Below, piece by piece: positions 6,953 to 59,298 of a DNA stretch of 64,000 nucleotides (its first letter is position 1; every line of letters begins with the position of its first letter). The notes under the pieces are model-generated. The model was not told the DNA's origin. It made no database searches and was given only the letters and a program-made list of their open reading frames with translations. The translations under genes were made by a program, and so were the position numbers. This DNA comes from Minisyncoccota bacterium (lineage in GTDB: Bacteria; Patescibacteriota; Minisyncoccia; Phycocordibacterales; DATDWN01): positions 1,813-65,812 of the forward strand of contig JBAZZC010000001.1 of assembly GCA_041658985.1 (NCBI GenBank). Reading direction: 5' to 3'.

Positions 6953-7331
6953 ATTTTTTTGTATACAAACCAACAAAAAGACCTCCCAAGACATCAAAGA
7001 CCAAATCTGAAGCTGTATCATTTATATACTCTGGTGTAGAAAAAGAAGAAACAAGACCAAAATATACTTCGTATATTTCCCAAAAAATACCCACCACTAG
7101 AGTTCCTAGTACAACAATTGCAACCGTTCTATAAATACTCCATACAGCCACATTAAAGATTTTCTGGAATAACAGCAATATTATTAATCCTACCGCCACC
7201 CCAGAAAGCAAATGAAGAACTATGTCATACCACCAAACCGTCCAAGTTAAATAAAACTTAGCGTCTAGAAGATATAAAACTAAAATCAAAACCAATAGAC
7301 CAAAAAGAACTTTACGTAATTTTGTATACAT
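6936..7331 (-). CDS. small polytopic membrane protein (hypothetical)
   Basis: 131 aa with about 4 hydrophobic helices. Confidence 0.4.
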   Translation of the reverse strand: MYTKLRKVLFGLLVLILVLYLLDAKFYLTWTVWWYDIVLHLLSGVAVGLIILLLFQKIFNVAVWSIYRTVAIVVLGTLVVGIFWEIYEVYFGLVSSFSTPEYINDTASDLVFDVLGGLFVGLYTKKYGKKT

Positions 7332-7473
7332 TTAATTTATCCGCACACCAATTTTGGCATTGTGTTTTTGTTGCTTATTAAATATTTATCACAAAATATT
7401 ATTCTGATACTTTATAAATCAAATCATCATTTGTGAAAACACGATGCAACGATGCCAAATTTGGTGTTCGGAT
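7329..7473. repeat. family-1 inverted-repeat element copy 1 (TIR ATCCGCACACcaattttggcattg / caatgccaaatttggtgttcGGAT)
   Basis: 24-bp terminal inverted repeats enclosing about 95 bp AT-rich core; same ends at 6 other loci. Confidence 0.75.
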
Positions 7474-7745
7474 TAATTGTATCAAAATTAAAATACCCAC
7501 GCATTATCGTGAGTCTCTTAATGGGACTACATAGATATTCCCCTACTACAAAAGTAGGTGGGTGCTCGCAAATGCACTCGTCAGAATGACAAATAAATTT
7601 GTCGCTCATCGTGGTACAAAAATATAAAGCTCCCTAAAAATTGTTATCCGGAAAATATCAAATGTAGTCCTGTATGAATTATACCTCCACCACAAACCAC
7701 TTCAATATTGCCCCAGGTAAATAAATGTGCTGTATAAAGAAAATT

Positions 7746-8327
7746 TTATTCGTCTACCCCAAAACGCTTATAATTATACACAGGAACATCCCCAAACCAG
7801 TGTTTAATCTCATGTGCCGATTCTTCGGGAGTTTCCGAACAATGGATGATGTTTGTTACGCAACGCTTTTCTTTGTTGGCTAGTGCAGGAGAATCAATAG
7901 AAAAATCACCCCTAATAGTTCCTACATCGGCCCTATATGGCAACGTATCTCCGGCAAGTTTACGAACAATATCAACCGAATGAATACCTTGGACTATCAT
8001 TTTTACCAGCGGTGCAGATTCCATAAAATCAACAAGCCACTTTCTAATCTCTGGACCAATTTTGGCTGGATCGTTTGTACCAAAATCTGAAATCAGGTCA
8101 TAACCATATTTTTCATAAGTAGATACAGTTTTACTTCCTAAACGAGTTATCCATTCTTCATTTTTTGGATAGTGATTATCCAATTGGTCGTGTGTTGGTT
8201 GAAACATTTCAAGAGCAACTATTTTCAGATCGCGTTGTTCAAAACGCCTAATAACTTCCCCAATCAGCCCTTTTCTAACCCCGTCTGGTTTTATCATTAC
8301 AAATGTTTTTTCTTCTTTTGGATGCAT
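7746..8327 (-). CDS. ndk: nucleoside diphosphate kinase (long form)
   Basis: FVMIKPDGVRKGLIGEVIRRFE NDK motif; 193 aa with insertion. Confidence 0.7.
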   Translation of the reverse strand: MHPKEEKTFVMIKPDGVRKGLIGEVIRRFEQRDLKIVALEMFQPTHDQLDNHYPKNEEWITRLGSKTVSTYEKYGYDLISDFGTNDPAKIGPEIRKWLVDFMESAPLVKMIVQGIHSVDIVRKLAGDTLPYRADVGTIRGDFSIDSPALANKEKRCVTNIIHCSETPEESAHEIKHWFGDVPVYNYKRFGVDE

Positions 8328-8392
8328 AAATAATAAGTTAAAAGTTTATAAAGTCATAAAGTCCATAAAGACTTGCAAAGATAATACAGGAA

Positions 8393-9160
8393 TTATTTTG
8401 TTAACACAATCGGGTCGCCATTAGTAATCGCAATGGTGTGTTCAAAATGAGCTGCTACAGAACCATCTGCTGTTTTGTATGTATAACCATCTTTAGCTAA
8501 AACAATCTTATCTCCACCCAATGTAAGCATCGGTTCAAGAGCAATGACCATTCCAGGCCGTAGAAGCTCACCCCCACCTCTTTGCCCCTCGTTGGGTACA
8601 AATGGGTCCTCATGGACCTTGTAGCCCACTCCATGGCCCGCCAAACCACTACAAATACCATATCCCAGGGCCCTGGCAAAGGATTCTATGGTAAAACCTA
8701 TGTCTCCTATATAACCACCCCCTTTGGCAGCTTTTATACCTAAACCGAGAGCTTCTTTACAATGTTCTATTAGTTTTTTATTTTTTGGAGAAATTTTTCC
8801 AACCCCAACAGTAATAGCACTGTCCGTAATAAGTCCCCCATGAATCAAACCCATATCCAGAGAAACAACATCTCCTTCCTGTAAGATAAGTGGGTCTTCA
8901 TTTGGAATGCCGTGAACGATTTCATTGTTTACTGAAACACACAAAGCAGAAGGGTAAGGTCTTTTTGCCCCGCGAGGAGTGTAGTTTAAAAAAGCCGGAG
9001 TGTCTCCCCCCTCTTTCACCAGTTGTCTAGTAAAATCCTCCAGCACCTCTGTAGAAATTCCAGCTTTAACTTTTTTTGAAACCTCCGACAAAATAAAAGC
9101 GAGGCGTTTGCCACCCTCTCTTAAAATTTCTATTTCCTTTTGGGTTTTAATCGTTACCAT
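8393..9160 (-). CDS. map: methionine aminopeptidase type I
   Basis: pita-bread fold motifs (D..D..H..E..E), HGIGxxxHE-like region; follows adk as in spc operon. Confidence 0.9.
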   Translation of the reverse strand: MVTIKTQKEIEILREGGKRLAFILSEVSKKVKAGISTEVLEDFTRQLVKEGGDTPAFLNYTPRGAKRPYPSALCVSVNNEIVHGIPNEDPLILQEGDVVSLDMGLIHGGLITDSAITVGVGKISPKNKKLIEHCKEALGLGIKAAKGGGYIGDIGFTIESFARALGYGICSGLAGHGVGYKVHEDPFVPNEGQRGGGELLRPGMVIALEPMLTLGGDKIVLAKDGYTYKTADGSVAAHFEHTIAITNGDPIVLTK

Positions 9161-9741
9161 CCTAATTTCTGAAGAATTTCTTTGTGAACGTTTTCTATTG
9201 ATTGTTCCCCATTAATTTCAGTAAATGTATATTTATCATCTTTTTTAAAATATTCAACAGCAGGATAAGTGTCTCTTTCAAACCAATCCAGTCTTTTTTC
9301 TATTCCATAACTGTTATCATCATCCCGACCACGAGCCAAAAGTCTCTCTCTAGACCATTGCCTAGAAACATTCATATAAACAACATTTATTTTTCTACTA
9401 TAAAACTCTGAAATAGAACTAAACACAACCGCTTCTGGTAATGACCTACAGATACCATCAAGCATAATATGTTCACCATCTTTAATTGTCTCTATGAGCA
9501 TATCCGCCCAAAATCTAACCGCTAAAAAGTCAGGCTGTCTTTCTCCTTTTTTATATATTTCTAGTGCCAGTTTATTTGAATATCCCTCTCCGGCAATAAA
9601 CTCCCGAAATTTTGAACCTGTTTCCAGATGAATAATTTCTTTCCCGGGGTCTTTTTCTTTTAAGAGTTTTTCTAAAAGAGCAACTTGGGTACCCTTGCCA
9701 CATCCAGAACGTCCTATAAATATAAATGTCTGAGGAGTCAT
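9154..9741 (-). CDS. adk: adenylate kinase (divergent)
   Basis: P-loop GRSGCGKGTQ, LDGxxRS, position secY-adk-map. Confidence 0.75.
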   Translation of the reverse strand: MTPQTFIFIGRSGCGKGTQVALLEKLLKEKDPGKEIIHLETGSKFREFIAGEGYSNKLALEIYKKGERQPDFLAVRFWADMLIETIKDGEHIMLDGICRSLPEAVVFSSISEFYSRKINVVYMNVSRQWSRERLLARGRDDDNSYGIEKRLDWFERDTYPAVEYFKKDDKYTFTEINGEQSIENVHKEILQKLGW

Positions 9742-9768
9742 AAACTAAATTATAGCAAAAATACTTTC

Positions 9769-9905
9769 ATCCGAACACTAACTCTGGCATTGTCTCTGTG
9801 TTGCTATTCGGATAATAAAATAAATTATAGTAAGCTTGTCTAATTTACAAGTTAAGGTATAAATCGTGAGAGACGATGCAACGATGCCAGAGTTAGTGTG
9901 CGGAT
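9769..9905. repeat. family-1 inverted-repeat element copy 2
   Basis: ATCCGAACACtaactctggcattg ... caacgatgccagagttagtGTGTGCGGAT. Confidence 0.75.
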
Positions 9906-9967: not shown

Positions 9968-10654
9968 CTAGGGAGAGATGACTTCGAACGTGTCATCCCC
10001 CACACTCTTCACGTAGAGAGCGTTCGCCTCGGCTAGAAGCCGAGCGATGACCGGTGGGTGGTGAGCCATGTACACGTAACCCACTGGAGCACTCATGATG
10101 CACGAGCCAGTTCCTGGTGGTCTGTACAAACTCATGTCAATCGTCCCTTGCTGGCGAACGACTTGTAGAACCTTGTCCGCCCCGAAGCAGATTTGGTCCT
10201 GCGGGATAAGTCGTCGGCTTTCACCGACAACCGTCTCGAGAACGAAGCGCCGATGCGTCGGCCCCTCATCCTTGGGAACTGGAGTGTATCCGCAGGACAT
10301 CGCGAGCATCTCCGCGAAGTCGCCCACCTCAGACCACGACCTGAGATATGGGGCGTAGAGACATCTCCCGCCGGCATCTCGCAACCACCCAGCTGGGGTC
10401 CATTTCAACAGGGCTTTGCCACGATACGCCGCCACACGAACCCCGTTGAGACAGGGTCCATCATCAATCATCCAATCAATGAGTAGGTAGTCCCTTTCAC
10501 GAAGACCACCATTCATTATCTTGAATGAGTCAGGCTTTTCTGGACCTCTTCCAGCTCTGATTCTTTCAATCTCTTCCCTTGTAAAATGGGTCGTTTCGGG
10601 ATAAACCTTGGGTTTTTGGTTCCAGTCCCTTTTCGGCTTTGGCCATTTTCCCAT
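9968..10654 (-). CDS. GC-rich orphan protein A (unknown function)
   Basis: about 55% GC coding with AGGAGG SD 8 nt upstream of ATG at 10654; hairpin terminator 9918-9962; inserted between secY and adk. Confidence 0.6.
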   Translation of the reverse strand: MGKWPKPKRDWNQKPKVYPETTHFTREEIERIRAGRGPEKPDSFKIMNGGLRERDYLLIDWMIDDGPCLNGVRVAAYRGKALLKWTPAGWLRDAGGRCLYAPYLRSWSEVGDFAEMLAMSCGYTPVPKDEGPTHRRFVLETVVGESRRLIPQDQICFGADKVLQVVRQQGTIDMSLYRPPGTGSCIMSAPVGYVYMAHHPPVIARLLAEANALYVKSVGDDTFEVISP

Positions 10655-10759
10655 GGGTTTTCCTCCTTTCCTTGGGAATCCAATCAAAAACTACCACAAG
10701 ATGTGGCTGTATGTCAATAGATTATATTAAATTTAAAAATCAAAATATTTAAACCACTA

Positions 10760-14371: not shown

Positions 14372-14758
14372 TTACCAGATTTTAAATAGTGCTTCACCTC
14401 CAACTCCTGCCTCTTTCGCCATCTTATCTGTCATAATTCCTTTTGGTGTTGAAAGAATAAGAGCGCCCATACCACCTTTAACCTTATTAATTTCTTTTGA
14501 TTTTTGATAAATTCTTTTTGATGTTTTTGAAACTCTTTCTATGCCATGAATTTTTGGACCGTTTTCATCATAAACAAAAACTACTTCAATAAACTTTGCT
14601 ATTTTCTTTCCTTTCTTTCCAAATGATTTTAGATAACCATCTTTAAAAAGAACATCACTAATTGCAAGTTTTAATTTTGAATATGGAAAAACAACAGATT
14701 CTTTTTTTGATTCTGTCGCATTCTTTATTCTAACTATCATATCTGATATTGGATCCAT
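14372..14758 (-). CDS. rpsH: 30S ribosomal protein S8
   Basis: S8 motifs, operon position. Confidence 0.9.
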   Translation of the reverse strand: MDPISDMIVRIKNATESKKESVVFPYSKLKLAISDVLFKDGYLKSFGKKGKKIAKFIEVVFVYDENGPKIHGIERVSKTSKRIYQKSKEINKVKGGMGALILSTPKGIMTDKMAKEAGVGGEALFKIW

Positions 14759-16446: not shown

Positions 16447-16525
16447 ATGTTTAGTTTATAAAGTTTGTAAAGTTTGTAAAGTTGAATTCATCTAATTTTT
16501 TGTTTTCTTTATGGACTTTATAACT

Positions 16526-18069: not shown

Positions 18070-18118
18070 GATAATTAGTTAAAAGTCTTTAAAGTTCATA
18101 AAGTCTATAAAGTTAATC

Positions 18119-18549: not shown

Positions 18550-18894
18550 TTATTTTTTAGTTTCACCGACGGTGGCCTTGGCTGCTTGAGCAGAAGCAAT
18601 CTCGCTTTCCTTTTGTTTTTGTTCCATTTCTTTCTGCATTTTACCTCCGTGTCTTATAAATTTCTTTGTAGGAGAAAACTCACCTAATCTGTGTCCAACC
18701 ATATCCTCATTAACTAAGACATCAATATGGGTCTTGCCATTATGAACACCAAACGTAAAACCAACCATTTCAGGGGCGATGACACAGGCTCTTGACCAAG
18801 TCTTAATAACCCCAGTTTCAGTGGATTTTTTACCCTCGATTTTCTTTAGAACTCGCGGGTCAACGTATAGGCCTTTCTTGCTTGATCTTGTCAT
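18550..18894 (-). CDS. rpsS: 30S ribosomal protein S19 (C-terminally extended)
   Basis: [20 protein letters not shown]. Confidence 0.9.
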
Positions 18895-18924
18895 ATTTTA
18901 ATTTGTTCAAAACAAAAACCACAT

Positions 18925-18953
18925 TGTTAGTGGTATTGACGCTTAACTTCATA
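18925..18953 (-). promoter_or_regulatory. sigma70-type promoter (TTGACT-17-TAGTAT) reading into rpsS
   Basis: near-consensus hexamers 17 bp apart on minus strand just downstream of GC-rich gene B hairpin; coordinates approximate. Confidence 0.4.
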
Positions 18954-19103
18954 CCGCAAACAAAATTGTAAGTAGAGGTAATGGCTCTGACTTGGCGTTT
19001 ATACTATACAAATCAAGGAAATAAGTCAACAGGCTTACAGGTAAGTTAAAGGGCGAGCCCGGCCGTTGCCGAGTCCGCCCTCTTTGGACGAGCTCCCACC
19101 CAC

Positions 19104-19628
19104 CTACTGCGGGAGCTGGAGCCCCTTCACCTTGGCCGGATCGAGCTTGCTGCCACCCTTCGGGAAGATAACCCCAGCGCCGAGGAAGGGCATGGTGAAC
19201 ATGATCCTTCCATCACCAATGTCCTGCGGGGAAACCTCCGTGGGGTTGATGTAGAACGGGAAGATCTGCCACTTTTCCCATTCCGATCCCGGAACCAGCC
19301 GAGCGACCCACGGGGACTCGAAGAAGATCAGGCCATCACGAAGTTCGATCTTCGAGATCGGCCCTCGGTAGTACGTCCCATCCTCTTGAGTTTCGAGGTC
19401 GCCTCCGACGATGTCATCCCTCCGTAACACGTCTTCCCAGGTCATGTGAACCTCCCATCTGGCAAAATTGCCACCAGACAACACCTTACATCTTTTTACA
19501 AAAGTGTCAACGTCTTTGCTTGGTAAAAAATATCTTCGAGAAACATCCGCAGGCGCTGAGCTTGGTGTTGTCATAGACCCCGAGCTTTGCGAGGGGCTCT
19601 TGACAACGAAGCGCCGAGGACCGAACAA
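19104..19628 (-). CDS. GC-rich orphan protein B (unknown function; probable true start 19445 with GGAGG SD)
   Basis: GC-rich open frame between rplB and rpsS; GC hairpin 19050-19085 downstream; N-terminal 60 codons are AT-rich and bracketed by 26-bp inverted repeats. Confidence 0.5.
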   Translation of the reverse strand: MFGPRRFVVKSPSQSSGSMTTPSSAPADVSRRYFLPSKDVDTFVKRCKVLSGGNFARWEVHMTWEDVLRRDDIVGGDLETQEDGTYYRGPISKIELRDGLIFFESPWVARLVPGSEWEKWQIFPFYINPTEVSPQDIGDGRIMFTMPFLGAGVIFPKGGSKLDPAKVKGLQLPQ

Positions 19629-19685
19629 GGCTTCCGCAGGAGAAGCCTTGTGTTTTCGAGAAGATATTATTTACCAAGCAAAAAC

Positions 19686-20528
19686 TTACTTCCTCTTGCC
19701 CACCTTCCTTCGTGAAACAATTAATCTGTTCGAGTATTTCTTTGGAGTTCTAGACTTCTGACCCTTTCCTGTTGGCTTACCATATACAGAGATTGCTCTC
19801 TTTCTCCCTCTACCTTGTCTGCCCTCTCCACCTCCGTATGGGTGGTCAACTGGGTTTTGAGCTGTACCACGAACTGTAGGACGAATACCAAGCCATCGTG
19901 AGCGACCAGCCTTTCCAAGGTTTGCTAACCTATTTTCATTATTTGAAACCTCACCAATACTTGCATAGGCAGTCTCCTTCACTTTTCGGACCTCAGATGA
20001 AGGCATCTTCAAGTCAACCATCCCAGCGTCTTTGGCTATAACTTCAATATAATTTCCGGCAGAACGAGCCAGTTTTGCTCCTCCTTGTGGCTTTACTTCA
20101 ACATTATATACAAATGTTCCAATAACTATGTTTTTTAAAGGAAGTCTATTACCAGGCTTTTGTTCAACATTCTCTCCAGTGACACAGATATCACCAACTT
20201 TTACTGATTTAGGAAGTAAAACATATCTCTTTTCACCGTCCTTGTATTGAGCCAAACCAATAAAACCAGCCCGGTTTGGGTCATATTCTACGGTTTTGAT
20301 TGTATAAGGAACGTCCATCTTGTCATATCTAAAATCAACCTCTCGAAAAAGTTTCTTATGACCACCACCTTTGTGACGAGTTGTAATCTTGCCGTGATGG
20401 TTTCTTCCAACTGACCGCTTAAAACCGCTTGTTAAAGATTTGAAAGGTTTACCGGTTGTCAAAAAATCACCGTAGGAAACAGTTGTGTGTTGGCGTTGGG
20501 ATTTAGATGTCGGCTTGTATGATTTCAT
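19686..20528 (-). CDS. rplB: 50S ribosomal protein L2
   Basis: L2 motifs GRNHHGKITTRHKGGGHKK. Confidence 0.95.
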   Translation of the reverse strand: MKSYKPTSKSQRQHTTVSYGDFLTTGKPFKSLTSGFKRSVGRNHHGKITTRHKGGGHKKLFREVDFRYDKMDVPYTIKTVEYDPNRAGFIGLAQYKDGEKRYVLLPKSVKVGDICVTGENVEQKPGNRLPLKNIVIGTFVYNVEVKPQGGAKLARSAGNYIEVIAKDAGMVDLKMPSSEVRKVKETAYASIGEVSNNENRLANLGKAGRSRWLGIRPTVRGTAQNPVDHPYGGGEGRQGRGRKRAISVYGKPTGKGQKSRTPKKYSNRLIVSRRKVGKRK

Positions 20529-20559
20529 AAATTTGAATTTTCTTTATAACTTTCAACTT

Positions 20560-21593: not shown

Positions 21594-21631
21594 GATTTTT
21601 CTTTATAGACTTTACAAACTTTATGGACTTT

Positions 21632-22246: not shown

Positions 22247-22470
22247 ATTTTTATTTTATATTTGGAGACGTTTTGCGGACAGTAATGAGAAAAGGTTTTC
22301 CTCAACATTGCCCTTCGCTAGCCCCCATGAAAAAGTCGCTTAAAGCGATTTGGCTATGGTAACAGATATCAATTTTTTAATCAAGTCGCTCTGGCCTTTT
22401 TGTTTAATATTTTATACAGAAAGGACCTCACGACGAGCGGGGGCCGAGAGGCCCTTCCTTTGTCGTGAGG

Positions 22471-22746
22471 TCACTGGTTGTCGAACTCCGTCGACTCGCG
22501 ACCCAAACCAAGTTGAACAGTCTCGGCGCAGGCCGACAACCTCTCAACCTGGAATCCAGTGTCAATCAACACTAAGATCTTGGTGATTTCAGCTGCCGGA
22601 ACACCTGTTCTCTCAGCGAATCCGTCAATATCCTTCGTGACGGCTTGCATGAGACCAGGGGTCTGCCGAAACAATTGCTTCAGCAGTTTGTAGCTTACTA
22701 TAGTTGAGTCCATCGATATCTCCCTCCAAAACAAATGGTATCCCAA
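22471..22746 (-). CDS. GC-rich orphan protein C1 (91 aa, unknown)
   Basis: GC-rich ORF with GGAGGGA SD; terminator-like hairpin module 22405-22465 immediately downstream. Confidence 0.5.
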   Translation of the reverse strand: MGYHLFWREISMDSTIVSYKLLKQLFRQTPGLMQAVTKDIDGFAERTGVPAAEITKILVLIDTGFQVERLSACAETVQLGLGRESTEFDNQ

Positions 22747-22879
22747 ATTATATAAATGTCAACGTAAACAAAAAACCGCTAAGATTAAGGGTGACTTATT
22801 ATACAGAAAAGACCTCGCGACAGACGAGAGGCGCAAGGCCCTTCCGTTGTGCGAGGTCGTGTGTCAGCGAGTGGAGAAG

Positions 22880-23344
22880 CTACTTCTGCAACACTCCAGC
22901 GACATAAACTCTCGGGGGTGGCCAGCCACCCTTTGTACATCGTGTGATGATTAGCTTGTCGAAGTGCCCACCATTCGGGCCATCAACAAACTCCACCCAC
23001 CCCTGGCAGAACATGGCTGTTGTCGGTTCGTACAACTGCACCTTCGCCCCTGACTTGGAAAGGTCGGCGAAGGCATTGAGTCTGAAATCGTCCTTGTCGA
23101 CTTCACTTCCTTGCCGGTGAGGAATCGCCTTATTCAGACGATCCCTCAGCTCGTTCTCGACCCTCGTCACCTCAGCGCGACGCTGGTTTTGCCGCTCGAT
23201 GGCCCCCTTTTTCAAATGAGACAACGACATGGTCCCGACCAACAGCAAAATACCCACAATCACGTAGGAGAGAAACGTACACGAAGCTTTTCCGAACATA
23301 CCCCCTCCAATCCAGATGGTCAGTACTTGACCATACCCTTTCAT
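22880..23344 (-). CDS. GC-rich orphan membrane-anchored protein C2 (start 23344 or 23299)
   Basis: GC-rich ORF with N-terminal TM helix; TTGACA-17-TATAAT promoter ends right at the upstream ATG; paralogous hairpin module 22800-22860 downstream. Confidence 0.5.
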   Translation of the reverse strand: MKGYGQVLTIWIGGGMFGKASCTFLSYVIVGILLLVGTMSLSHLKKGAIERQNQRRAEVTRVENELRDRLNKAIPHRQGSEVDKDDFRLNAFADLSKSGAKVQLYEPTTAMFCQGWVEFVDGPNGGHFDKLIITRCTKGGWPPPRVYVAGVLQK

Positions 23345-23437
23345 ATTATATCACCCTTTGTAATTAATGTCAATAATACAAAATAGCCCTAGTTAGGGCA
23401 ATTTTGTTGAATTTATATTGTTTGAAATCATCCCAGC

Positions 23438-25493: not shown

Positions 25494-25796
25494 TTAAGCC
25501 GGTATCAGTAAATCCCTTTTAAGATTTTGGCGTTCTTCTGACACAAGTTGTCCAAATGTTGGGATTTTTGATTGTAAAAAGACCAAAACATCTTGTGGAG
25601 TAGTGGCATCTTCGTCTAAAAGTAAATCAAATTCGGTCTGTTCTTTTTCAGAGAGAATATCAAGAGCTCTTACTAGAAGAGCTTGATATATCATCTTTCC
25701 GACACGGTCAGCTATTTCAACCTGTTTTTCAGAAGTCAATGATTCAAGTCCCCACTCTTTTATTATATCTTTTGATAATGTATCGTCTGTTGTCAT
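25494..25796 (-). CDS. hypothetical acidic protein (100 aa)
   Basis: ORF downstream of giant membrane protein gene, upstream of tuf promoter. Confidence 0.4.
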   Translation of the reverse strand: MTTDDTLSKDIIKEWGLESLTSEKQVEIADRVGKMIYQALLVRALDILSEKEQTEFDLLLDEDATTPQDVLVFLQSKIPTFGQLVSEERQNLKRDLLIPA

Positions 25797-31453: not shown

Positions 31454-31984
31454 TTATTTTAAATTACTAATTACTTCATCTATAAGATCCTTTAATTGAC
31501 CTCTGTTTGATATGACCCTTGCTTTATCAAGGTTAGTGAAGACAAGATTACCACCAATTTCACTCAATGTTGTCAAACCACTACCAAGAGAATCCTCGGC
31601 ACCATATGATCCACCAACACCAAATTCTTGAGTTAATTCATATCTGTGGTCAGTTGGTGCATCTATTATTTGAGATACCTGATTTGGTTCTAGAACCATT
31701 TTGATAGTAAAAGTTATATTATCTCCTTGACCAGGAATTCTTTGAATTGATACTTCTAATGGGTTTCCAGTATTCATAAATCTATCTTCAATAGTAAAAA
31801 TCCTCGGAGTCATGTTCCCTCTTGGAACTAATTCTCCTAATATCTTTATTTTAGGATTTATTTCTTCACTTAACGCAAATCCTTGCATTTGCTGTGCGTC
31901 TTCCTCTTTCCTTTTTTCAGCCATAAAAACGTCATACTCATTTGGTTTATCTTCACTCGCTGGTTGAACTCCTTCTTCACTCAT
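31454..31984 (-). CDS. hypothetical protein (176 aa)
   Basis: ORF preceded by family-1 IR element; no motif recognised. Confidence 0.45.
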   Translation of the reverse strand: MSEEGVQPASEDKPNEYDVFMAEKRKEEDAQQMQGFALSEEINPKIKILGELVPRGNMTPRIFTIEDRFMNTGNPLEVSIQRIPGQGDNITFTIKMVLEPNQVSQIIDAPTDHRYELTQEFGVGGSYGAEDSLGSGLTTLSEIGGNLVFTNLDKARVISNRGQLKDLIDEVISNLK

Positions 31985-31993: not shown

Positions 31994-32064
31994 ATCCGAA
32001 CACTAACTTTAGCATCGCTCCGCCGTGTTTCGATGAAACACAATGCCAAAGTTAGTGTGCGGAT
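31994..32064. repeat. family-1 inverted-repeat element copy 3 (short form, 71 bp)
   Basis: ATCCGAACACtaactttagcatcg...caatgccaaagttagtGTGTGCGGAT. Confidence 0.7.
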
Positions 32065-32168
32065 GAATTAAAATATTAATACCCTAATTTTACCCCGACC
32101 ACAAGAATTTACAACCCTGTAATTAAATCCCTTCTTTTCCCCTAACAACTTAAACCAAACCCCCACTC

Positions 32169-32196
32169 AATCTACTACGATATATCGTAGTAGATT
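32169..32196. promoter_or_regulatory. 28-bp perfect palindrome aatctactacgatatatcgtagtagatt (copy downstream of yerC-like gene)
   Basis: exact palindrome, identical copy at 32641-32668, near-identical at 5212-5239. Confidence 0.6.
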
Positions 32197-32203
32197 GATA
32201 ATA

Positions 32204-32608: not shown

Positions 32609-32640
32609 AGATTATATTTACAATTAATTTTAATATCTTT

Positions 32641-32668: not shown

Positions 32669-32752
32669 AAGAACTGAGTGTCAACATCAAAAAGCATTTT
32701 TGAACAATGACAAAATAATTAAAGAGCTTCTCACAAACCAAGGGCAGTTATA

Positions 32753-35055: not shown

Positions 35056-35104
35056 TTTTGTGTTTGTATTTTACTTTATGGACTTTATGAACTTTATAGA
35101 CTTT

Positions 35105-36593: not shown

Positions 36594-36705
36594 GGGATAG
36601 TCTATAAAGTCGAAAGTTTATAAAGTCTATAAAGTAGATTCATTTGCTCCTTTTGACTTTATAGACTTTTGACTTCTGACTTTGTTATGATACCATACTT
36701 TCATT

Positions 36706-37244: not shown

Positions 37245-38114
37245 TCATCGTTTCAAAAGAAACCTTTTCCCATCTGATTCAAAAATCACTTGTCCTACAT
37301 CATATGTTCCAATGATTGGGACTTTTAGTTTATTTAAAATATCCAAAACTTCTTTGTGTGGATGGCCATACGTATTGTTTTTTCCTGCAGATATAACAAC
37401 CCATTCTGGATCAACTGCTTTTACATACTCTTCCGACGAACTTGTTCGTGAGCCGTGATGACCAGCTTTTAAAATTGTGCTTTTTAAGTTGTTTTCTAAA
37501 CTAACAAGAAAATGTTCTATGTTTGTCGGCGAATCTCCTTGTAACATTACCGAGGTCTCACCATAAACCAATTGCATTACAATCGAACCGTCATTTGGAT
37601 TTAGACCAGAAATATCTCTGTCTGGGAAAATTACTCGTAAATATGCACTCCCACCTAAATCAATTATTTGTCCTCGCCTTGCAATTATTTTTGGAATTTT
37701 TTTATTTATGATTTCGTCTTCTAATAGAGAATATGCCTCACTTTTATTTGTCGTGCCGGGCTCAAGCACTACATCGGTTTTGTATTTTTTCAGAAAAGGG
37801 ATAAATCCTTCGTAGTGGTCCTTATCTGGATTTGTCACAACTAGCATATCAATTTTTCTGTCATACCAAGGTAAAATGGATGAGATTTCTTTCATTAGAG
37901 CGTTATTTGGGCCACCATCTATCAAAACCTGTATACCAGTTGGTGATTCAATAAAAATCGAGTCACCCTGACCAACATTCAGGAAGACAACAGTCAAAAT
38001 CCCCTGACGATTTTCTCTAATTACAGTAGACCACAAAACGAAGCTTAAAATCAAAAGTAGTCCAAGAATATACCAGCGTAGATAAGCACGAATATGAGAA
38101 AATCTTTTCAACAT
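37245..38114 (-). CDS. membrane-anchored ComEC C-terminal-type metallo-beta-lactamase domain protein
   Basis: VVFLNVGQGD...GHHGS...TYGHPH MBL motifs typical of ComEC/Rec2 nuclease domain; own N-terminal TM. Confidence 0.7.
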   Translation of the reverse strand: MLKRFSHIRAYLRWYILGLLLILSFVLWSTVIRENRQGILTVVFLNVGQGDSIFIESPTGIQVLIDGGPNNALMKEISSILPWYDRKIDMLVVTNPDKDHYEGFIPFLKKYKTDVVLEPGTTNKSEAYSLLEDEIINKKIPKIIARRGQIIDLGGSAYLRVIFPDRDISGLNPNDGSIVMQLVYGETSVMLQGDSPTNIEHFLVSLENNLKSTILKAGHHGSRTSSSEEYVKAVDPEWVVISAGKNNTYGHPHKEVLDILNKLKVPIIGTYDVGQVIFESDGKRFLLKR

Positions 38115-38147: not shown

Positions 38148-38289
38148 ATCCGCACACCAACCCTGGTATTGTGTCTTCCGTTGATATTATATGTATAATA
38201 GATATATCAACTGGTGAATTTACTAGTAACTGAGCAATAATTTCCACACCACGACACAATATCAACGATACCAGAGTTGGTGTGCGGAC
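38148..38289. repeat. family-1 inverted-repeat element copy 4 (contains TGtATAAT extended -10 directed at sod gene)
   Basis: ATCCGCACACcaaccctggtattgtg...caacgataccagagttggtGTGTGCGGAC. Confidence 0.75.
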
Positions 38290-43731: not shown

Positions 43732-44100
43732 GTGGAAAACTGTATATTTTGCAAAATAGTTAAAGGAGAAATTCCTTCACATAAAGTTTATGAGGATGAA
43801 AATTTCTTGGCTTTTTTAAGTATTGAACCGGAATCACCAGGACACACCCTGGTAATTCCAAAAGAACATTATAGATGGGTTTGGGGTGTGCCAAATGTCG
43901 GAGAATATTTTGAAGTAGCTAAAAAAATTGCACTTGCCCAACAAAAAGCATTTGATACCGACTGGATACTTTCAAAAATAGTTGGTGAAGAAATCCCCCA
44001 CGCTCACATTTGGGTCTTTCCAAATGATAAAGTCAAAGGGGATAAAAAAGATTTTGAAACAAACGCCAAAAAAATTATAGAGAATCTACAAGTTTTATAA
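43732..44100 (+). CDS. HIT-family (histidine triad) nucleotide hydrolase
   Basis: CIFCKI...GHTLVIPK...PHAHIWVFP histidine triad. Confidence 0.85.
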   Translation: MENCIFCKIVKGEIPSHKVYEDENFLAFLSIEPESPGHTLVIPKEHYRWVWGVPNVGEYFEVAKKIALAQQKAFDTDWILSKIVGEEIPHAHIWVFPNDKVKGDKKDFETNAKKIIENLQVL

Positions 44101-44845
44101 TCTCAATAAAATCTTTTACTCGCAAGCTCTCTCGCCCAACCAGAAGTCCTGCAACATTTCCATCACGGACCAAAACATCGGCATTTACCCTGTCTGCATC
44201 ACCACCATATATTATTTTTACACCTTCAGAAAAAGCCCCACACAAATCTTTTAAAACTTTTTTGATAAAAATAGACATCTCGTGGAGCTCTCCAGGACTA
44301 ACTGGCTCTGGACCACCAACGGCCCATAATGGCTCGTAAGCAATGACCACTTGGTCCAATTGTTTTTTAGAAACATCTTTTAGGCTAGAGACAATTTGCT
44401 GTTTTATAAAATTATAGAAATCACCGTTTGCATCTCGGCTACTTTCTCCAACACAAATTATTGCAGTCATTCCCCCGCCAATTACAGCCCTAACTTTTTT
44501 ATTTATAAGCTCATCACTCTCCCCTCCGCCAGTTGGCGGATATCTTCTTTCTGAGTGACCAACAATTACATAATCAACTTTAAATTGGGTAAGCTCGGCA
44601 AAACTAACTTCACCAGTGAAAGAACCAAGTGCTTCATAATTTGCATTTTGTGCACCAAGAGAAAGTGAACCAGCCATCAAATTAGATATAGAAGAAAGAA
44701 AAACAAAAGGTGGACAAAGAACGACCGTGGTATTTTTTACACCACGCATTGCTCTTTTTACATTTACCGCTATTTTCTTTGCTTCTTCTAAACTTTGTGG
44801 ATTCATTTTCCAATTTCCCACCACAAGTCTTTTTGGTTTTTTCAT
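44075..44845 (-). CDS. tpiA: triosephosphate isomerase
   Basis: VGHSERR, AYEPLWAVG, GG motifs. Confidence 0.9.
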   Translation of the reverse strand: MKKPKRLVVGNWKMNPQSLEEAKKIAVNVKRAMRGVKNTTVVLCPPFVFLSSISNLMAGSLSLGAQNANYEALGSFTGEVSFAELTQFKVDYVIVGHSERRYPPTGGGESDELINKKVRAVIGGGMTAIICVGESSRDANGDFYNFIKQQIVSSLKDVSKKQLDQVVIAYEPLWAVGGPEPVSPGELHEMSIFIKKVLKDLCGAFSEGVKIIYGGDADRVNADVLVRDGNVAGLLVGRESLRVKDFIEIIKLVDSL

Positions 44846-49787: not shown

Positions 49788-50450
49788 CTAGGCCACCACG
49801 GGGGCGGTCAGTTGCGGGAAGACGAAGCGATGACGATCCTCGCCGTCCCAGACGTGGTCGAGCGACAGCCGGTGGGCGCGGACGTGGAGACCAAAGGGGC
49901 AGACGCGCACGCTCGCAACGAAGAACTCGTTGTCCTTCTTCACGAGGAAGAAGGTTCCGTAGCCATCCATTCTCAACCAGTCCTGGTGGGTCTCGCAGAA
50001 TGAGATGACCTGACCCTGGGTCATGACCAGATTGTCCAGAGGGACGCCGACATTGGCGTAAATGTCAACGAACTTGCCATTGCGGACGAGCTCGTGAACT
50101 TCCACGTCCGTGTTGGGGGTTGCCACTCCTTCCACGTCGAGACCGTAGTTGACGAAGTCGGGGTCGATGTAACCCCGAAACACCGTCTTGGCCTTGGCGA
50201 TAGTCCGCTTGCCCTTGCAGGCAGAGATGGTCAAAGTCTCCCCGCCCGAGACGAGACGGAGGTAGAAAGCGGACTTCTTGGTCGGCTTCACCACCTTCGG
50301 CATGATGTCGGCGTCGCCGTCGAGGTATGCCTTGATCATCCGAAGACGACCACCCGACCCAATGAGATTTACTTGTTCGGGGGTTAAGCCATCCTCTTCA
50401 AATCTGTCCGACAACCACTTCATCTGGTCAATCGTGTAGAGTAAGGACAT
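49788..50450 (-). CDS. GC-rich orphan protein D (unknown function)
   Basis: GC-rich ORF; AGAAAGGG SD then ATG at 50450; consensus promoter 50599-50627 and structured leader upstream. Confidence 0.6.
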   Translation of the reverse strand: MSLLYTIDQMKWLSDRFEEDGLTPEQVNLIGSGGRLRMIKAYLDGDADIMPKVVKPTKKSAFYLRLVSGGETLTISACKGKRTIAKAKTVFRGYIDPDFVNYGLDVEGVATPNTDVEVHELVRNGKFVDIYANVGVPLDNLVMTQGQVISFCETHQDWLRMDGYGTFFLVKKDNEFFVASVRVCPFGLHVRAHRLSLDHVWDGEDRHRFVFPQLTAPVVA

Positions 50451-50598
50451 CGTCCTACCCTTTCTGGCACATCGTGCCAATGCTGGCTCAGCGGGATGCT
50501 TTGCCACAGCAGAAAAGGTCATTGTTTTAGGGCACTTTCTGCTATGGCAAATCTTATTTTTGACTCTATAACACTTTTAAAGAACTGCTTAACTTATT

Positions 50599-50627
50599 AT
50601 ATTATACACCCCTAAACCACTTTAGTC
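50599..50627 (-). promoter_or_regulatory. consensus sigma70 promoter TTGACT-17-TATAAT for gene D with upstream A/T UP-like tract
   Basis: perfect -10, 5/6 -35, 17-bp spacer; paralogous copy upstream of gene E. Confidence 0.6.
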
Positions 50628-51056
50628 AAGGTGTGAGATTTACACAAAAACTTTCAAATTTAGGCAAAACCTGAGGCGTAAGCCTCGGTTTGCGCTCGTC
50701 GTTCCAACGGTTGAACGTGGCGAAATGTACAGAATACCATCCAAACCACCTCCCCTAGAAATTCTTTTGAAGATTTCGGGGTTGAATATAATTTCGCATC
50801 ATAATGCGTCAGTATTCTGCACCAAGTATCTTCATTTTTTTGAAGTGTCTACATAAGTCCTCCGTCTGAAACCGTGGTCGCAGACGCTCTCAACTTATCC
50901 CAACAAGTGAGGAGCGTGTAAGAATTTATTCTTACGACGTCCGAGTGCCGTCGAGACAAAGGGTACAACCCTTTATGGATACTGGATTCGGCCGCCAGAA
51001 ACCTTAATCTCCAGCAAGATTCACCTACTACCATATTTAGTATAACAAATTTTTTT

Positions 51057-51193
51057 ATCCGCACACCAACTTTGCCATCGTTTTTATGTTCTGTCTTGAT
51101 AGGTTATAAGATAAAAAAAATTATGTATAAATATTAAAATATTATTGATTTGTTTTTGTAAAAACAGAGCTATGGCAAAGTTGGTGTGCGGAT
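51057..51193. repeat. family-1 inverted-repeat element copy 5
   Basis: ATCCGCACACcaactttgccatcg...ctatggcaaagttggtGTGTGCGGAT. Confidence 0.75.
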
Positions 51194-51249: not shown

Positions 51250-51906
51250 TCAAGGAGAACCGAGACCCCAGCCCTTAGAACTTACTTGCGGACGCCAGCG
51301 AACCACCAGTAGGCGTCCCAGGCGTAGTCGTGGCGGTTTGACGTGCACGCGGCGCCCGCCGTGCCAACGGCGGAACGTGGCGAAACACCACTTGCCGTTC
51401 TCATCCTTCCAGTGCGTACCGTGAAGATGTGTGTCGGCGAAGGTGGGGTCCGCCTCGTTGACAGCAGCGACGGAGTACGGATCAGCGGGCTTGAGACCCG
51501 CAAACTCGTACTCCTTCTCCAAATCGTCGTCACTGATGACGCCGTTTTTGTAGGCCTCCGGACGAGGCTTGAAGAAAACGACCTCCGTCGGTCCGCCCGT
51601 ACCTTTCGGCATGGTCGCGACGACGCCGGCGTCAACGTACTGTTTCCGGCCCGTCGCCTTGAGCGTCGCTTCCGGAGTGCGCGTGTTGTCCACGTCGACC
51701 AGTCGAATGATGAGGTTGGCCAACGATTCGACCAGCTCGCGGAACACCGCGAACATCCTCATGCCGAGATTGTCCACCCCCAGCGCCTGCTGGGCGCCAT
51801 CCTTCGGAGTTTCCGCCTGATGCTTGCGCATGGCAGCACGGAGTTGGTCCACAACCGTGTCAATCTGTCCGTCGGTCATCGGAGATGCGGTCATGGTCTG
51901 TGCCAT
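51250..51906 (-). CDS. GC-rich orphan protein E (unknown function; 3' end/frame uncertain)
   Basis: GC-rich ORF with AAAGGA SD; promoter 52027-52055; hairpin terminator about 51200-51232 followed by family-1 element. Confidence 0.55.
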   Translation of the reverse strand: MAQTMTASPMTDGQIDTVVDQLRAAMRKHQAETPKDGAQQALGVDNLGMRMFAVFRELVESLANLIIRLVDVDNTRTPEATLKATGRKQYVDAGVVATMPKGTGGPTEVVFFKPRPEAYKNGVISDDDLEKEYEFAGLKPADPYSVAAVNEADPTFADTHLHGTHWKDENGKWCFATFRRWHGGRRVHVKPPRLRLGRLLVVRWRPQVSSKGWGLGSP

Positions 51907-52026
51907 GGCGTCATCCTTTCGTGACTAGGCAACTGTATTGTCGCCATAGTTTTTAATTTACAAGATGTTTATGAACTAAAAACTATGGCGACTTGCAAGT
52001 AAGTATCAAAGAACTTAACTTTCTGT

Positions 52027-52055
52027 ATTATACACCCTTAATCAGTTTCCGTCAA
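52027..52055 (-). promoter_or_regulatory. consensus sigma70 promoter TTGACG-17-TATAAT for gene E
   Basis: paralog of D promoter module (about 85% identity over about 100 bp). Confidence 0.6.
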
Positions 52056-52163
52056 GGCGTGACATTTGACACAAAAACTTTCAAATTTAGGCAAAACCCG
52101 AGGCGTAGGCCTCAGTTTGTGCTCGTAGGATTTTTGCTCAAGGTTGTGTATTTGGGGGCTTTC

Positions 52164-54027: not shown

Positions 54028-54189
54028 ATGAGTAGTTGAAAGTTTATAAAGTCCATAAAATCAAAAGTGAACTAAAATTTACTTTATAGACTTTGGACTT
54101 CACGACTTTTGACTCATTCATTATATCAAAAAAATATCTTTTTACATAAAAAATGTGTATAAGAAAATAAAATTAAAAACGTATTATAT

Positions 54190-58097: not shown

Positions 58098-58252
58098 CTA
58101 GAAGTAAATTATAAAACTCTTGGCTTGATATATATTTTTTGGGGCACGGATATTTTTCTGCTGAAAAATTCCTCGTGCTCCCTCCGTCGAGCGTCGCAAG
58201 TCCCCAAAAAATATACATCTGCGCCGTAGTTTTATAATTCTCATATAACCAA

Positions 58253-58283
58253 CAAAAAACTCGGTTTGTTATCCGAGTTTTTT
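58253..58283 (+). terminator. bidirectional terminator aaaaaactcgg tttgttat ccgagtttttt
   Basis: hairpin flanked by A6 and T6. Confidence 0.65.
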
Positions 58284-58321
58284 GTTATATAATAGATTGA
58301 CTCGGATTTATCATTAACTTC

Positions 58322-58452
58322 ATCCGCACACTAAGTCTGTCATCGTTTTATTTCATAAAACAAAACTGATTAAATAAAACATCAGTAAAAAATTGAAATA
58401 AAATGCGATGATAATAAAATAAAAGGAATAATGACAGACTTAGTGTGCGGAT
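58322..58452. repeat. family-1 inverted-repeat element copy 6 (ends 10 nt before start codon; internal TTGAAA-16-TAAAAT)
   Basis: ATCCGCACACtaagtctgtcatcg...aatgacagacttagtGTGTGCGGAT. Confidence 0.8.
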
Positions 58453-58462
58453 AAACTAAAAA

Positions 58463-59146
58463 ATGAAAAAATTTATATTAAACACACTATTAATTACTCT
58501 TATTTTTGGTGCAAACATTGCTTTGGCGCAAACAGGAGCTATCTGTACCCAGGAGGCCAAACAGTGTCCTGACGGTTCGTACGTCGGAAGAACTGGACTA
58601 AACTGTGAATTTGCAAAATGTCCAAACTCTGTTTCTACTTCTACTTCAGCAACACCAAGACAAGGGTTAATGCAAAAATTAAAGAATGTGGTAGAAAATA
58701 AAAAAGAAGTCAGAGAAGAAGTAAAAAACAAGATTCAAGACAGAGTTTCTAGTACCACAGCGCAAAGAATTGAGAAGCGTTTTGAAAAAGTAGCAACAAA
58801 ATACTTAAGAACAATTGAAAGAGAAGAAGCTATTATGGCAAAAATTGTTTCTAGAATTGAAAAGATAAAAGCTAATGGAGGAAATGTGATAGAAGCAGAA
58901 AAACTTGTGGCCACAGCAAAAATCTCACTAACTCAAGCAAGAACGATTTATGAAACATTAAAAATATCTGCCAACTCTGCTGATTCAGTCGAAAAAATAA
59001 CCAAAGAAACATTAACCAACTTAAAAAATACAGCAAAAAATGTAGAAAAATACTTAAGAGAGGCTCACAAATCATTACAAAAAATAGTCGGTGTCTTAAG
59101 AGGTGTTTCAGGGTTGCGAAATGCCACTTCTACAAAAGAAGATTAA
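58463..59146 (+). CDS. secreted protein with N-terminal 4-Cys module and long helical/coiled-coil region
   Basis: signal peptide, CxxxxC...CxxxxC. Confidence 0.5.
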   Translation: MKKFILNTLLITLIFGANIALAQTGAICTQEAKQCPDGSYVGRTGLNCEFAKCPNSVSTSTSATPRQGLMQKLKNVVENKKEVREEVKNKIQDRVSSTTAQRIEKRFEKVATKYLRTIEREEAIMAKIVSRIEKIKANGGNVIEAEKLVATAKISLTQARTIYETLKISANSADSVEKITKETLTNLKNTAKNVEKYLREAHKSLQKIVGVLRGVSGLRNATSTKED

Positions 59147-59167
59147 TAATTATTATTAAACTAATTC

Positions 59168-59298
59168 ATCCGCACACTAAGTCTATCATCGTTTTATTTC
59201 ATAAAACATAAGGATAATCATAAAATATCTAGTAAAAATTCAGTTTAAACATGGAATTGCTAAAACAAGAGAAATAATGATAGACTTAGTGTGCGGAT
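59168..59298. repeat. family-1 inverted-repeat element copy 7 (about 90% identical to copy 6)
   Basis: ATCCGCACACtaagtctatcatcg...aatgatagacttagtGTGTGCGGAT. Confidence 0.8.

Follow-up and report, generated by a model that had tools for sequence, protein, structure and literature searches.

Small palindromic mobile repeats are known from several bacteria. The Correia elements (CREE/NEMIS) of Neisseria are 100-155 bp long, and their long terminal inverted repeats pair to form a single long hairpin. They occur in hundreds of intergenic copies, often by start codons, which are co-transcribed with genes and differ in presence or absence between strains. Outward promoters and an IHF site have been defined in them, and their TA target is duplicated; we know of no coding gene within them and of no dedicated transposase. 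REPINs are paired REP sequences mobilised by RAYT transposases, and the cognate single-copy RAYT gene is flanked by REPs. The ERIC/IRU and YPAL repeats of enterobacteria are imperfect palindromes of ~127-170 bp in transcribed intergenic regions, which use a TA target, have a narrow lineage distribution and affect the mRNA as hairpins; to our knowledge, no crossed-module architecture has been described for them. PATEs, which derive from IS200/IS605, insert beside a fixed short sequence without duplication and depend on DNA hairpins; both of their ends have a subterminal hairpin of their own, and their polarity with respect to the target is fixed. Patescibacteria, with their tiny genomes, are thought to carry little mobile DNA.

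The window analysed here (the whole stretch of DNA, 64 kb) contains seven inverted repeats, named Family-1, and these are confirmed as real copies of a ~135-bp hairpin-shaped insertion-element family. The family is apparently undescribed and spread over many Patescibacteria (CPR) genomes; it is multi-copy and non-coding, and has subfamilies with similar cores inside one genome. We regard it as a variant among the small palindromic mobile repeats, not as a new kind of system: a mobile hairpin of the MITE/REPIN/Correia type, with an unusual architecture and a putative mobilising enzyme. The reading we favour, with a probability of about 0.7, is a non-autonomous palindromic ("foldback") mobile DNA element of Patescibacteria.

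Like MITEs, which are small (<~500 bp) and without coding capacity, most copies measure 129-139 bp and hold no ORF. They have terminal inverted repeats (arms of 21-24 bp, 94% complementary) and many dispersed copies, present or absent at orthologous sites. A fixed-length target-site duplication is lacking: the flanks are asymmetric (WMA versus TAAA), and direct repeats of at least 3 bp flank 38 of 105 copies versus ~20 expected. The analogy with Correia elements and MITEs made in the original prediction is right for the behaviour but not for the regular duplication that defines MITEs. Correia elements share with Family-1 the size range of 100-155 bp, the long hairpin, the intergenic position, often at start codons, the presence/absence pattern and the lack of a coding gene and of a known dedicated transposase. 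Family-1 differs from them in its termini (TCCGCACAC), in having no regular duplication (T at position -2 in only 14 of 92 copies), in internal promoters at chance level, in arms that covary between copies, in crossed inner modules and in its phylum. REPINs also consist of two inverted arms around a variable spacer that form a hairpin, are extragenic and multi-copy, keep their pairing as the arms evolve and show no regular target duplication; Family-1 has longer arms (~36-40 nt) and a conserved 12-nt terminus, and no RAYT-like or repeated ORF was found in the 8-kb loci around copies. The ERIC/IRU and YPAL repeats resemble Family-1 as imperfect palindromes of ~127-170 bp in transcribed intergenic regions that are present or absent at orthologous sites, but the sequences differ. 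As in PATEs, insertion is beside a fixed tetranucleotide without duplication: TAAA (read as TTTA^ on the opposite strand) abuts one end in 91 of 92 normalised copies. Unlike in PATEs, the two ends form a common stem, and the interior is found either way round with respect to the TAAA side (47 versus 31).

Two other candidates were rejected. Integron attC sites have R''/R' core sites (RYYYAAC / GTTRRRY) and lie in cassette arrays adjoining an integrase, whereas the Family-1 termini are TCCGCACAC/GTGTGCGGA and the copies are dispersed among housekeeping genes. TIGR arrays lie beside a Nop-domain gene and repeat a short unit in tandem, with box C/D motifs and two 8-12-nt spacers (PMC12045711); Family-1 copies are scattered rather than arrayed and have a length of 135 nt, which rules this class out. 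An Rfam search of the 64-kb window gave no family match for Family-1 at the gathering score, and the copies, searched on both strands, gave only sub-threshold generic matches to plant miRNA-precursor hairpins. No paper describing Family-1 was found in the literature, in agreement with the earlier statement that it was not known to be described.

Copies in the window and in other genomes

The motif TCCGMACAC has 14 matches in the window, which form exactly seven inverted pairs; chance would give 0.41, and none of 100 shuffles exceeded 3. All seven elements of the original prediction are present, at a density of about one copy per 9 kb, and their coordinates need small corrections (Table 1): c1 starts at 7339, not 7329, and the right end of c4 is GGAC, while the other spans, with flanking A/T included, are right.

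Table 1. Family-1 copies in the window and parts of copy c1
Feature	Position	Strand	Setting and remarks
c1	7339..7473	-	TAAA-side end faces left
c1 setting			Between host -10 box TACAAT (7476-7481, minus strand) and ATG 7329-7331 of a 131-aa gene
c1 outer stem, left arm P1L	7340..7360	+	Positions 1-12 conserved (TCCGMACACYAA); positions 13-21 variable, covarying with right arm
c1 inner module U, left copy GTGTTTTT	7362..7369	+	Complementary to 7436-7442 (AAAACAC)
c1 inner module V, left copy GTTGC	7370..7374	+	Complementary to 7446-7450 (GCAAC)
c1 right-hand partners	7436..7450	+	U' 7436-7442, GAT, V' 7446-7450; V' adjoins right arm
c1 outer stem, right arm P1R	7452..7472	+	Uncompensated T (GTGTTCGGA) at stem position 5
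c2	9769..9905	+	TAAA end toward hairpin terminator of GC-rich gene A; other end 15 nt upstream of adk -10 box (TATAAT-N7-ATG)
c3	31994..32064	-	Short 71-nt form without core and one V module; end 9 nt ahead of ATG (31982-31984) of a 176-aa gene
c4	38148..38289	.	Between divergent genes: metallo-beta-lactamase-fold gene (own TATAAT-N7-ATG) and sod; atypical flanks, CTAAA / element / CAAATC
c5	51057..51193	-	Between terminator of GC-rich gene E and TTGTTATACT promoter, which precedes a conserved non-coding stretch; segment downstream of c5 conserved
c6	58322..58452	+	Leader of 227-aa ORF, ATG 10 nt downstream; TTGTTA-16-TATAAT promoter (58266-58293) ends 28 nt upstream
c7	59168..59298	+	Between 227-aa ORF and 89-aa ORF, ATG of the latter 8 nt downstream; sister of c6 (same arm type, identical first 25 core bases)

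The additional copies anticipated by the original prediction were found. The same termini occur in at least 91 further stretches from at least 25 MAGs (Paceibacterota, Zambryskibacteria, Taylorbacteria, Campbellbacteria and Moraniibacteriota), and more than 100 further copies of 129-139 bp are bounded by them in these Patescibacteria MAGs. Of the 110 distinct copies, most fall between 129 and 139 bp, with outliers of 69, 74, 120, 125, 140 and 142 bp, and besides c3 there is a second short form (L049, 3111-3184). In SMAG_U8111, subfamilies with shared cores are present. Neither a longer version with the same termini (a cognate autonomous IS) nor a multi-copy or transposase-like ORF was detected in ~1 Mb of loci (8 kb each) around copies, and no ORF is linked to the element or lies inside it. 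Being common to many lineages, Family-1 would be a notable part of genome dynamics in Patescibacteria, and it would serve as a marker for comparative work and binning checks.

Insertion sites

Filled and empty states could be compared at three orthologous sites (c1, c2 and c5). The boundaries lie within 1-2 nt of TCCG/CGGA, an uncertainty due to the fact that all comparisons span genomes 20-35% diverged in DNA, and Family-1 is thus a discrete insertion element, as had been proposed. At the c1 site, loci L094 and L099 lack the element: the same TTTTGATACAATTAA runs straight into ATGATG, and the host -10 box is already present. At the c2 site, the element occupies the same point in L094, and L099 has an empty site (GCTGTTTA joined to TAGAATTTAATTTTTGTTATACTT). 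There is no element at the point of L006 and L028 that corresponds to c5. At a pilB-like gene, L070 carries the element and the window carries a different hairpin, both after the same TTTTTGATATAAT.

The preferred insertion site is AAT-W-M-A^TAAA, asymmetric and without regular duplication. Exactly one TAA-type flank was found in 92 of 105 copies. In the flank profile of 92 normalised copies, T is at -4 in 82, A is at -1 in 81 and TAAA is present in 91. The A^T step is nearly invariant at both junctions, and TAAA pre-exists at the empty sites of c2 and c5. We propose that a trans-acting enzyme would recognise the conserved termini and move the element, and that selection on mobility, probably through a DNA hairpin or cruciform form, would keep the arms complementary. 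The two orientations of the interior relative to the target would follow from the equivalence of the two ends.

These junctions are also compatible with recombination or invertible-DNA sites, where a site-specific recombinase would act on the conserved termini, either through a circle junction (GTGTGCGGA joined to TCCGCACAC) with a central palindromic A^T crossover or by inversion between the arms. Such an activity would explain the missing duplication and the near-random orientation of the interior with respect to flank polarity (47 versus 31), and it agrees with the A^T step and with the perfect palindrome that the joined ends form when read from the sequence. However, no recombinase gene is linked to any copy in the 8-kb loci, the 90-bp spacer is short for inversion and no single locus occurs in both orientations, the only second assembly of the species being identical, so we judge this explanation distinctly unlikely.

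Paired arms and crossed inner modules

In the seven window copies, the arms are 22-30 nt long and 88-100% complementary, and the fold z-scores range from -5 to -12 on both strands. Across the family, the outer stem has 21-24 bp, of which the first 12 (TCCGCACACYAA) are conserved across lineages. The arm variants listed in the original prediction (ttggcat/atgccaa and others) are correct as quoted, and the covariation that it described between the arms is strong. Complementarity is 94% within a copy versus 63% between copies. For 101 distinct copies, 93.7% of the stem cells are paired versus 86.0% in shuffles, and double-changed cells number 208 versus 76±10, a value reached in 0 of 500 shuffles. 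The covariation score of the same copies is 0.273 versus 0.129, and 0.02-0.09 with partners slid. One subfamily carries the same two mismatches (stem positions 5 and 13) in c1, L031 and L070, three loci in three genomes.

Inside the outer stem, each arm has two short modules, U (for example GTGTTTTT, GTCTCCC or GTTTTTT) and then V (GTTGC, GTCCTG or GTTAC), followed by a variable core with 24% GC. The crossed U/V complementarity is significant across the family. Because the order U-V on the left is repeated as U'-V' on the right, the helices cross each other and are mutually exclusive. Simple transposition gives no explanation for this arrangement, a structural puzzle that could point to the putative mobilising enzyme.

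Promoters, start codons and terminators around the element

In 45 of 105 copies one end lies 3-20 nt from the ATG of a long ORF. The consensus of these copies has a TATAAT that stops 3 nt ahead of the other end, and a transcript would thus start at the foot of the stem; the box 3 nt upstream is, in many copies, the host's own. About 40% of copies are placed 3 nt behind a TATAAT box and 3-15 nt ahead of an ATG. Of the three copies predicted to end 8-12 nt before starts of plus-strand genes, c6 (10 nt) and c7 (8 nt) do so, while c4 is 13 nt from the sod ATG. Three copies that precede minus-strand gene starts had been overlooked: c1 (7 nt from GGAT, 8 nt from CGGA), c3 (9 nt from GGAT) and c2 (27 nt). 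More than half of the copies have no adjacent start codon, and c2, c5, L065 and L046 are upstream of the -10 box and therefore outside the mRNA.

Many copies would be found in this position because the preferred target of the mobile element is similar to the sequence that separates a -10 box from a leaderless-type start. There they would have to be transcribed from the host promoter, giving a 5'-terminal hairpin leader that ends in UAAA-N(0-10)-AUG. Consequences for translation, RNase III processing or mRNA stability, if any, would be incidental and may have been co-opted. At c1, the start is of the leaderless type in element-free relatives, and insertion appears to have turned it into a hairpin leader. 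A gene without a leader in one species can thus have a 135-nt hairpin leader in the next, and the position between -10 box and start codon bears on translation initiation in Shine-Dalgarno-poor organisms.

Alternatively, function rather than target preference could account for the strong association of the element with -10 boxes and start codons. Family-1 would then act in cis as a structured 5' leader RNA, for example by stabilising the 5' end as a hairpin, by binding a protein or by offering RNase III a processing site. Selection would favour its influence on expression in an organism that is poor in Shine-Dalgarno sites and prone to leaderless starts, with spread being secondary. This agrees with the 45 copies near an ATG and their TATAAT consensus, with the tightly constrained length and with the junction pair at stem position 22, U·G in 23 gene-oriented copies and C·A in 12. 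In this and other CPR genomes alike, further, unrelated hairpins take the same place ahead of start codons. However, the interior can face either way relative to the gene, the stem shows no RNA-strand bias (G·U mismatches: 10 sense, 9 antisense), over half of the copies are away from start codons, some outside the mRNA, and the orthologous genes in L094 and L099 manage without the element. We consider a primary leader function unlikely.

Copies c2 and c5 are located after the GC-rich hairpin terminators of genes A and E, as claimed, and ~10 other copies sit just after GC-rich terminator hairpins. With their very stable stems, the elements might act as bidirectional intrinsic terminators or insulators between transcription units, but this is highly improbable: a consensus scan found no terminator-like site in the elements, the sequences next to the stem are TAAA and T-K-W-ATT, one on each side, instead of a T-run, and many copies separate a promoter from the gene that it serves. 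The intrinsic terminator class was rejected on the first two grounds. The promoter-like hexamers reported earlier exist (TGTATAAT in c4, TTGAAA-16-TAAAAT in c6) and their frequency is at chance level, as a consequence of the 24% GC core. Promoter-like sites number 6 versus 3.7±2.3 and 1 versus 1.6 in shuffles, and -10-like hexamers in the core are equally common on the two strands (124 versus 106). The original prediction of a mobile promoter-terminator is not upheld by these results.

A wider proposal for the mobile element, which we hold to be rather unlikely, is a new class of DNA-hairpin transposon. It would be recognised at the conserved 12-bp stem foot and inserted without duplication at AATWMA^TAAA, possibly by A^T crossover of a palindromic circle junction (GGA^TCC), and its two mutually exclusive, covarying inner helices would make a two-state hairpin with an 8-9-nt bulge on either side. 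Landing between -10 box and ATG would have been co-opted in Patescibacteria, where leaderless genes would acquire 5'-terminal hairpin leaders, Family-1 being one of several hairpin families there.

Family-1 copies in the window and beyond

The Family-1 elements are genuine and form a widespread family of palindromic insertions. All seven predicted window copies (c1-c7), bounded by ATCCG(C/A)ACAC and GTGT(G/T)CGGAT, are present in the sequence, with termini TCCGCACACYAA (joined as in a circle junction, the ends would read GTGTGCGGA then TCCGCACAC). The motif TCCGMACAC has 14 matches in the window, which are exactly seven inverted pairs, with 0.41 expected. Arms of 23-37 nt, 84-100% complementary, were given by the repeat finder for six copies (I2 and I7-I11), or 88-100% without I2, whose repeat extends into the flanks; c1 is not among the 25 inverted-repeat pairs that it listed. 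Both strands of the elements fold well beyond shuffled sequences (z -5 to -12). The arm variants quoted in the original prediction are correct and its coordinates stand, apart from the start of c1, which is 7339, and the end of c4, which is GGAC. No copy in the window is more than about 30 nt from a start codon or promoter.

The window, with about 37% GC, comes from a metagenomic contig of 148.7 kb and contains ribosomal, secY-adk, rpoB-like, type IV pilus and nusA genes. Shine-Dalgarno motifs are nearly absent from the genome, and many starts read TATAAT-N6-7-ATG, which is the pattern of putatively leaderless mRNAs.

Outside the window, at least 91 stretches were found when one genome per species was scanned with the pattern TCCGMACACYAA-N90-120-TTRGTGTKCGGA. 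Among the matches listed, nearly all are in Patescibacteria MAGs, including Paceibacterota, Zambryskibacteria, Taylorbacteria, Campbellbacteria and Moraniibacteriota, with dozens in the single MAG SMAG_U8111. A few carry Nitrospira or Nanoarchaeota labels; we suspect mis-binned contigs, because their flanks are AT-rich like those of the Patescibacteria matches. Viral contigs gave 0 matches to the two-arm pattern. From the collected DNA, 110 distinct copies were extracted; most are 129-139 bp long, and two short forms measure 69 and 74 bp. Five scan matches with GC-richer cores differ from the rest: L033 and L088 have a common arm type, L053 and L072 another, both pairs retaining TCCGCACACCAAT termini, and L005 (Acidimicrobiales) looks like a chance palindrome. 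Odd arrangements at four loci (see table) include two back-to-back copies with TACA between them, two variants of ~300 bp with Family-1 termini, and clusters of three copies within 1.4 kb.

In agreement with the original prediction, which knew of no description, Rfam holds no such family and returned generic hairpin matches only, at gathering score and at permissive E-values. The tRNA/tmRNA search found nothing, and literature searches on the terminal sequence, CPR MITEs, structured RNAs and palindromic repeats gave no relevant description. Small palindromic mobile repeats of the Correia, ERIC and REPIN type are the closest relatives by behaviour. TIGR stem-loop arrays, known from CPR bacteria, consist of short units in tandem (PMC12045711); this identity was rejected, as such arrays do not fit Family-1. 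In the loci around the copies there was no candidate RAYT or IS partner, clustering of all ORFs for a multi-copy transposase gave housekeeping and pilus genes only, and the search for long versions or solo arms gave only a few degenerate copies and the two ~300-bp variants.

Features of the window and of compared loci (Lnnn, loci from other genomes)
Feature	Position or locus	Description
c1	7339-7473	
c2	9769-9905	
c3	31994-32064	
c4	38148-38289	
c5	51057-51193	
c6	58322-58452	
c7	59168-59298	
c1 site, empty	L094, L099	TTTTGATACAATTAA-ATGATG: -10 box directly, then start
c1 site, filled	window	same -10 box, TAA, 133-bp element, TAAATTAA, ATG
c2 site, empty	L099	gene A homologue, terminator, then GCTGTTTA-TAG-AATTTAATTTTTGTTATACTT
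c2 site, filled	L094	flanks as in L099; GCTGTTTA[TCCG...CGGA]TGAATTTAATTTTTGTTATACTT
c5 site, empty	L006, L028	element absent
GC-richer core	L072 (Moraniibacteriota)	upstream of nusG
GC-richer core	L033	upstream of 472-aa ORF
Odd arrangements	L016 1757-2026; L060 575-874; L079 2762-3072; L030 6553-7928	
TATAAT-N6-7-ATG starts	9154-9741, 14372-14758, 25494-25796, 33784-34338, 37245-38114, 44075-44845 and others	
Cys-rich ORF	7427-7609 (minus)	60 aa
c6, c7 and ORFs	58322-59576	227-aa and 89-aa ORFs
GC islands	1-400, 9968-10687, 18800-20000, 22400-23350, 49788-50522, 51250-51906, 60801-61259, 62400-63270	
Tandem-unit elements	8328-8392, 16447-16525, 18070-18118, 20529-20559, 21594-21631, 35056-35104, 36594-36705, 54028-54125	units and complements make a hairpin at the last two
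Conserved segments	50780-51040 (minus)	non-coding
Direct repeat	50588-50699, 52014-52126	113 nt, 86% identical
32-bp palindromes	32167-32198, 32639-32670	
Trp-repressor-like gene	32204-32608	

Filled and empty sites and the target

The predicted mobility is borne out by orthologous sites at c1, c2 and c5 that are filled in one genome and empty in another. Querying metagenome contigs with the Adk protein yielded 47 related loci; the c2 site is filled in the window as well as in L094, and TAAAAA is already present at the c5 insertion point of L028. At a pilB-like gene, the syntenic locus L070 has a Family-1 copy between TTTTTGATATAAT and ATG, and the window has a different hairpin of 96 nt there, behind the same -10 box. 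Because 20-35% of the DNA differs between the genomes compared, the insertion junctions are good only to 1-2 nt. Identical-protein look-ups for closer relatives or a second orientation returned the same species only, with identical sequence. Fifteen codons through the end of c1 are read by the 60-aa Cys-rich ORF, conserved in L096, L098 and L099, whose C-terminus was apparently altered by the insertion. The sister copies c6 and c7 bracket a 227-aa ORF without family match, followed by an 89-aa ORF, a layout that resembles a composite element or cassette.

Copies were oriented by a single TAA-type flank, which was possible for 92 of 105 (both flanks were TAA-type in 1 and neither in 12). The flank consensus is A(-6) A(-5) T(-4) [T/A] [A/C] A before the element and T A A A after it, with A at +4 in 91 of the 92 oriented copies. 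TAAA pre-exists at two empty sites and is therefore part of the target. Direct repeats of 3 bp or more flank the element in 38 copies, where about 20 would be expected; the target-site duplication check thus gave an excess of repeats that is not a regular duplication, and on this test Family-1 is not a MITE in the strict sense. The arms have no polarity with respect to the TAAA flank, P1 (the outer stem) being symmetric at positions 1-21. The lack of a regular duplication, the asymmetric AATWMA^TAAA target, the crossed inner modules and the two interior orientations are unusual. The target coincides with leaderless promoter-start junctions.

Outer stem, crossed modules and selection for pairing

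P1 comprises 21 Watson-Crick pairs and three junction pairs. Positions 1-12, except position 10, were preset by the search pattern. Positions 13-21 show 64 distinct 9-mers among 106 copies, and complementarity at the free positions is 94% within a copy versus 63% between copies; position 18, for example, is G-C in 52 copies, T-A in 25, C-G in 20 and A-T in 3. The predicted arm covariation is upheld by pair counting, with 208 double-changed cells versus 76±10 in shuffles (0 of 500 shuffles reach 208), and by a covariation score of 0.273 versus 0.129, falling to 0.02-0.09 with the partners slid. At position 5, 20 of 101 copies have C->A on a single arm, a change that is never compensated, and at position 13 a T·T or A·A mismatch is present in 15 copies (~14%). 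These recurrent mismatches are inherited within subfamilies.

Inside P1, each arm holds two short modules, U (GTGTTTTT, GTCTCCC, GTTTTTT, GCTTTTT and similar) and V (GTTGC, GTTAC, GTCCTG, GTTCTG, GTCTTGC and similar), both beginning with GT except in GCTTTTT. The module adjacent to the left arm complements the one distal to the right arm, and vice versa. For this crossed combination the longest shared run averages 5.3 nt versus 3.45 in permuted arm pairs, and reaches at least 6 nt in 36 copies versus 5 expected, while the nested combination stays below its permuted control (2.95 versus 3.56); therefore the two inner helices cross. Given the closing stem and linkers of 0-3 nt, these helices would be mutually exclusive and could not form together, and a pseudoknot was rejected on this geometry, which would leave 1-nt joints with the closing stem. 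Either inner helix alone lengthens P1 and leaves a bulge of 8-9 nt, on the 3' side for one and the 5' side for the other. Of the two arms, the V module lies beside the one on the TAAA side in 47 copies and beside its partner in 31, so the interior occurs in both orientations. The core is variable, with 24% GC; groups of copies in a single genome have similar cores, which may be read as recent amplification.

Whether the hairpin acts as RNA or DNA was addressed with transition mismatches at P1 1-21 of gene-oriented copies, and G·U versus A·C showed no strand bias: 10 of these mismatches would be G·U in the sense RNA and 9 in the antisense RNA. With respect to the gene, the interior had one orientation in 23 copies and the opposite one in 12, which is not a significant difference. 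The subfamily c1/L031/L070 has members in three genomes, each at its own locus, and all share one pair of mismatches. The mismatches were thus inherited as the element moved, without either arm being rebuilt from the other on each occasion; therefore, the data speak for pairing having been selected over the long term. The simplest reading is that selection acts on mobility through a DNA hairpin, and the element may also have an RNA role.

Position relative to genes and other features of the window

In 45 of 105 copies the ATG of a long ORF lies 3-20 nt past exactly one end, which is the TAAA end in 39 of them. Positions -9 to -4 of these 45 copies read T24 A27 T26 A37 A34 T42, a TATAAT consensus that stops 3 nt before TCCG, often with TG upstream; transcription from it would start within the element's first bases. 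Further copies (c2, c5, L065 and L046, for example) stand between a GC-rich terminator and the next promoter. The original prediction of a promoter-terminator element did not hold: internal promoter-like hexamer pairs are not above chance, -10-like hexamers of the core are equally frequent on both strands, and a consensus scan found no terminator-like site within the elements.

At least eight islands of 50-61% GC stand within the 37% GC genome, inserted between core genes and even within the ribosomal-protein cluster. Several hold an orphan ORF without Pfam match, and several have a promoter of the TTGACA-N17-TATAAT type; PADLOC was negative for the seven island ORFs scanned. The GC-rich genes A and E finish in the GC-rich hairpin terminators that precede c2 and c5, and both are coding genes, as shown by about twice as many mismatches at third codon positions as at the others. 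The secY-adk junction of L095 and L096 lacks gene A. The direct repeat precedes genes D and E, both GC-rich, which therefore share a leader/promoter region.

A second kind of element consists of tandem units of 8-9 nt (ACTTTATAA-like in the window) and their complements, and stops 5-10 nt before many start codons. At the secY-adk position of other CPR genomes (L103, L104, L105, L113 and L134, upstream of adk), hairpins are made from their own, different unit. The conserved non-coding segments immediately downstream of c5 and a TTGTTATACT box are 78-89% identical in L028, L006, L131 and L083, from different genomes; Rfam gave no match at E up to 5, and the stretch may be an undescribed conserved RNA. 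Finally, the Trp-repressor-like gene stands between two perfect 32-bp palindromes, TCAATCTACTACGATA followed by TATCGTAGTAGATTGA and a one-base variant, which look like operator sites.
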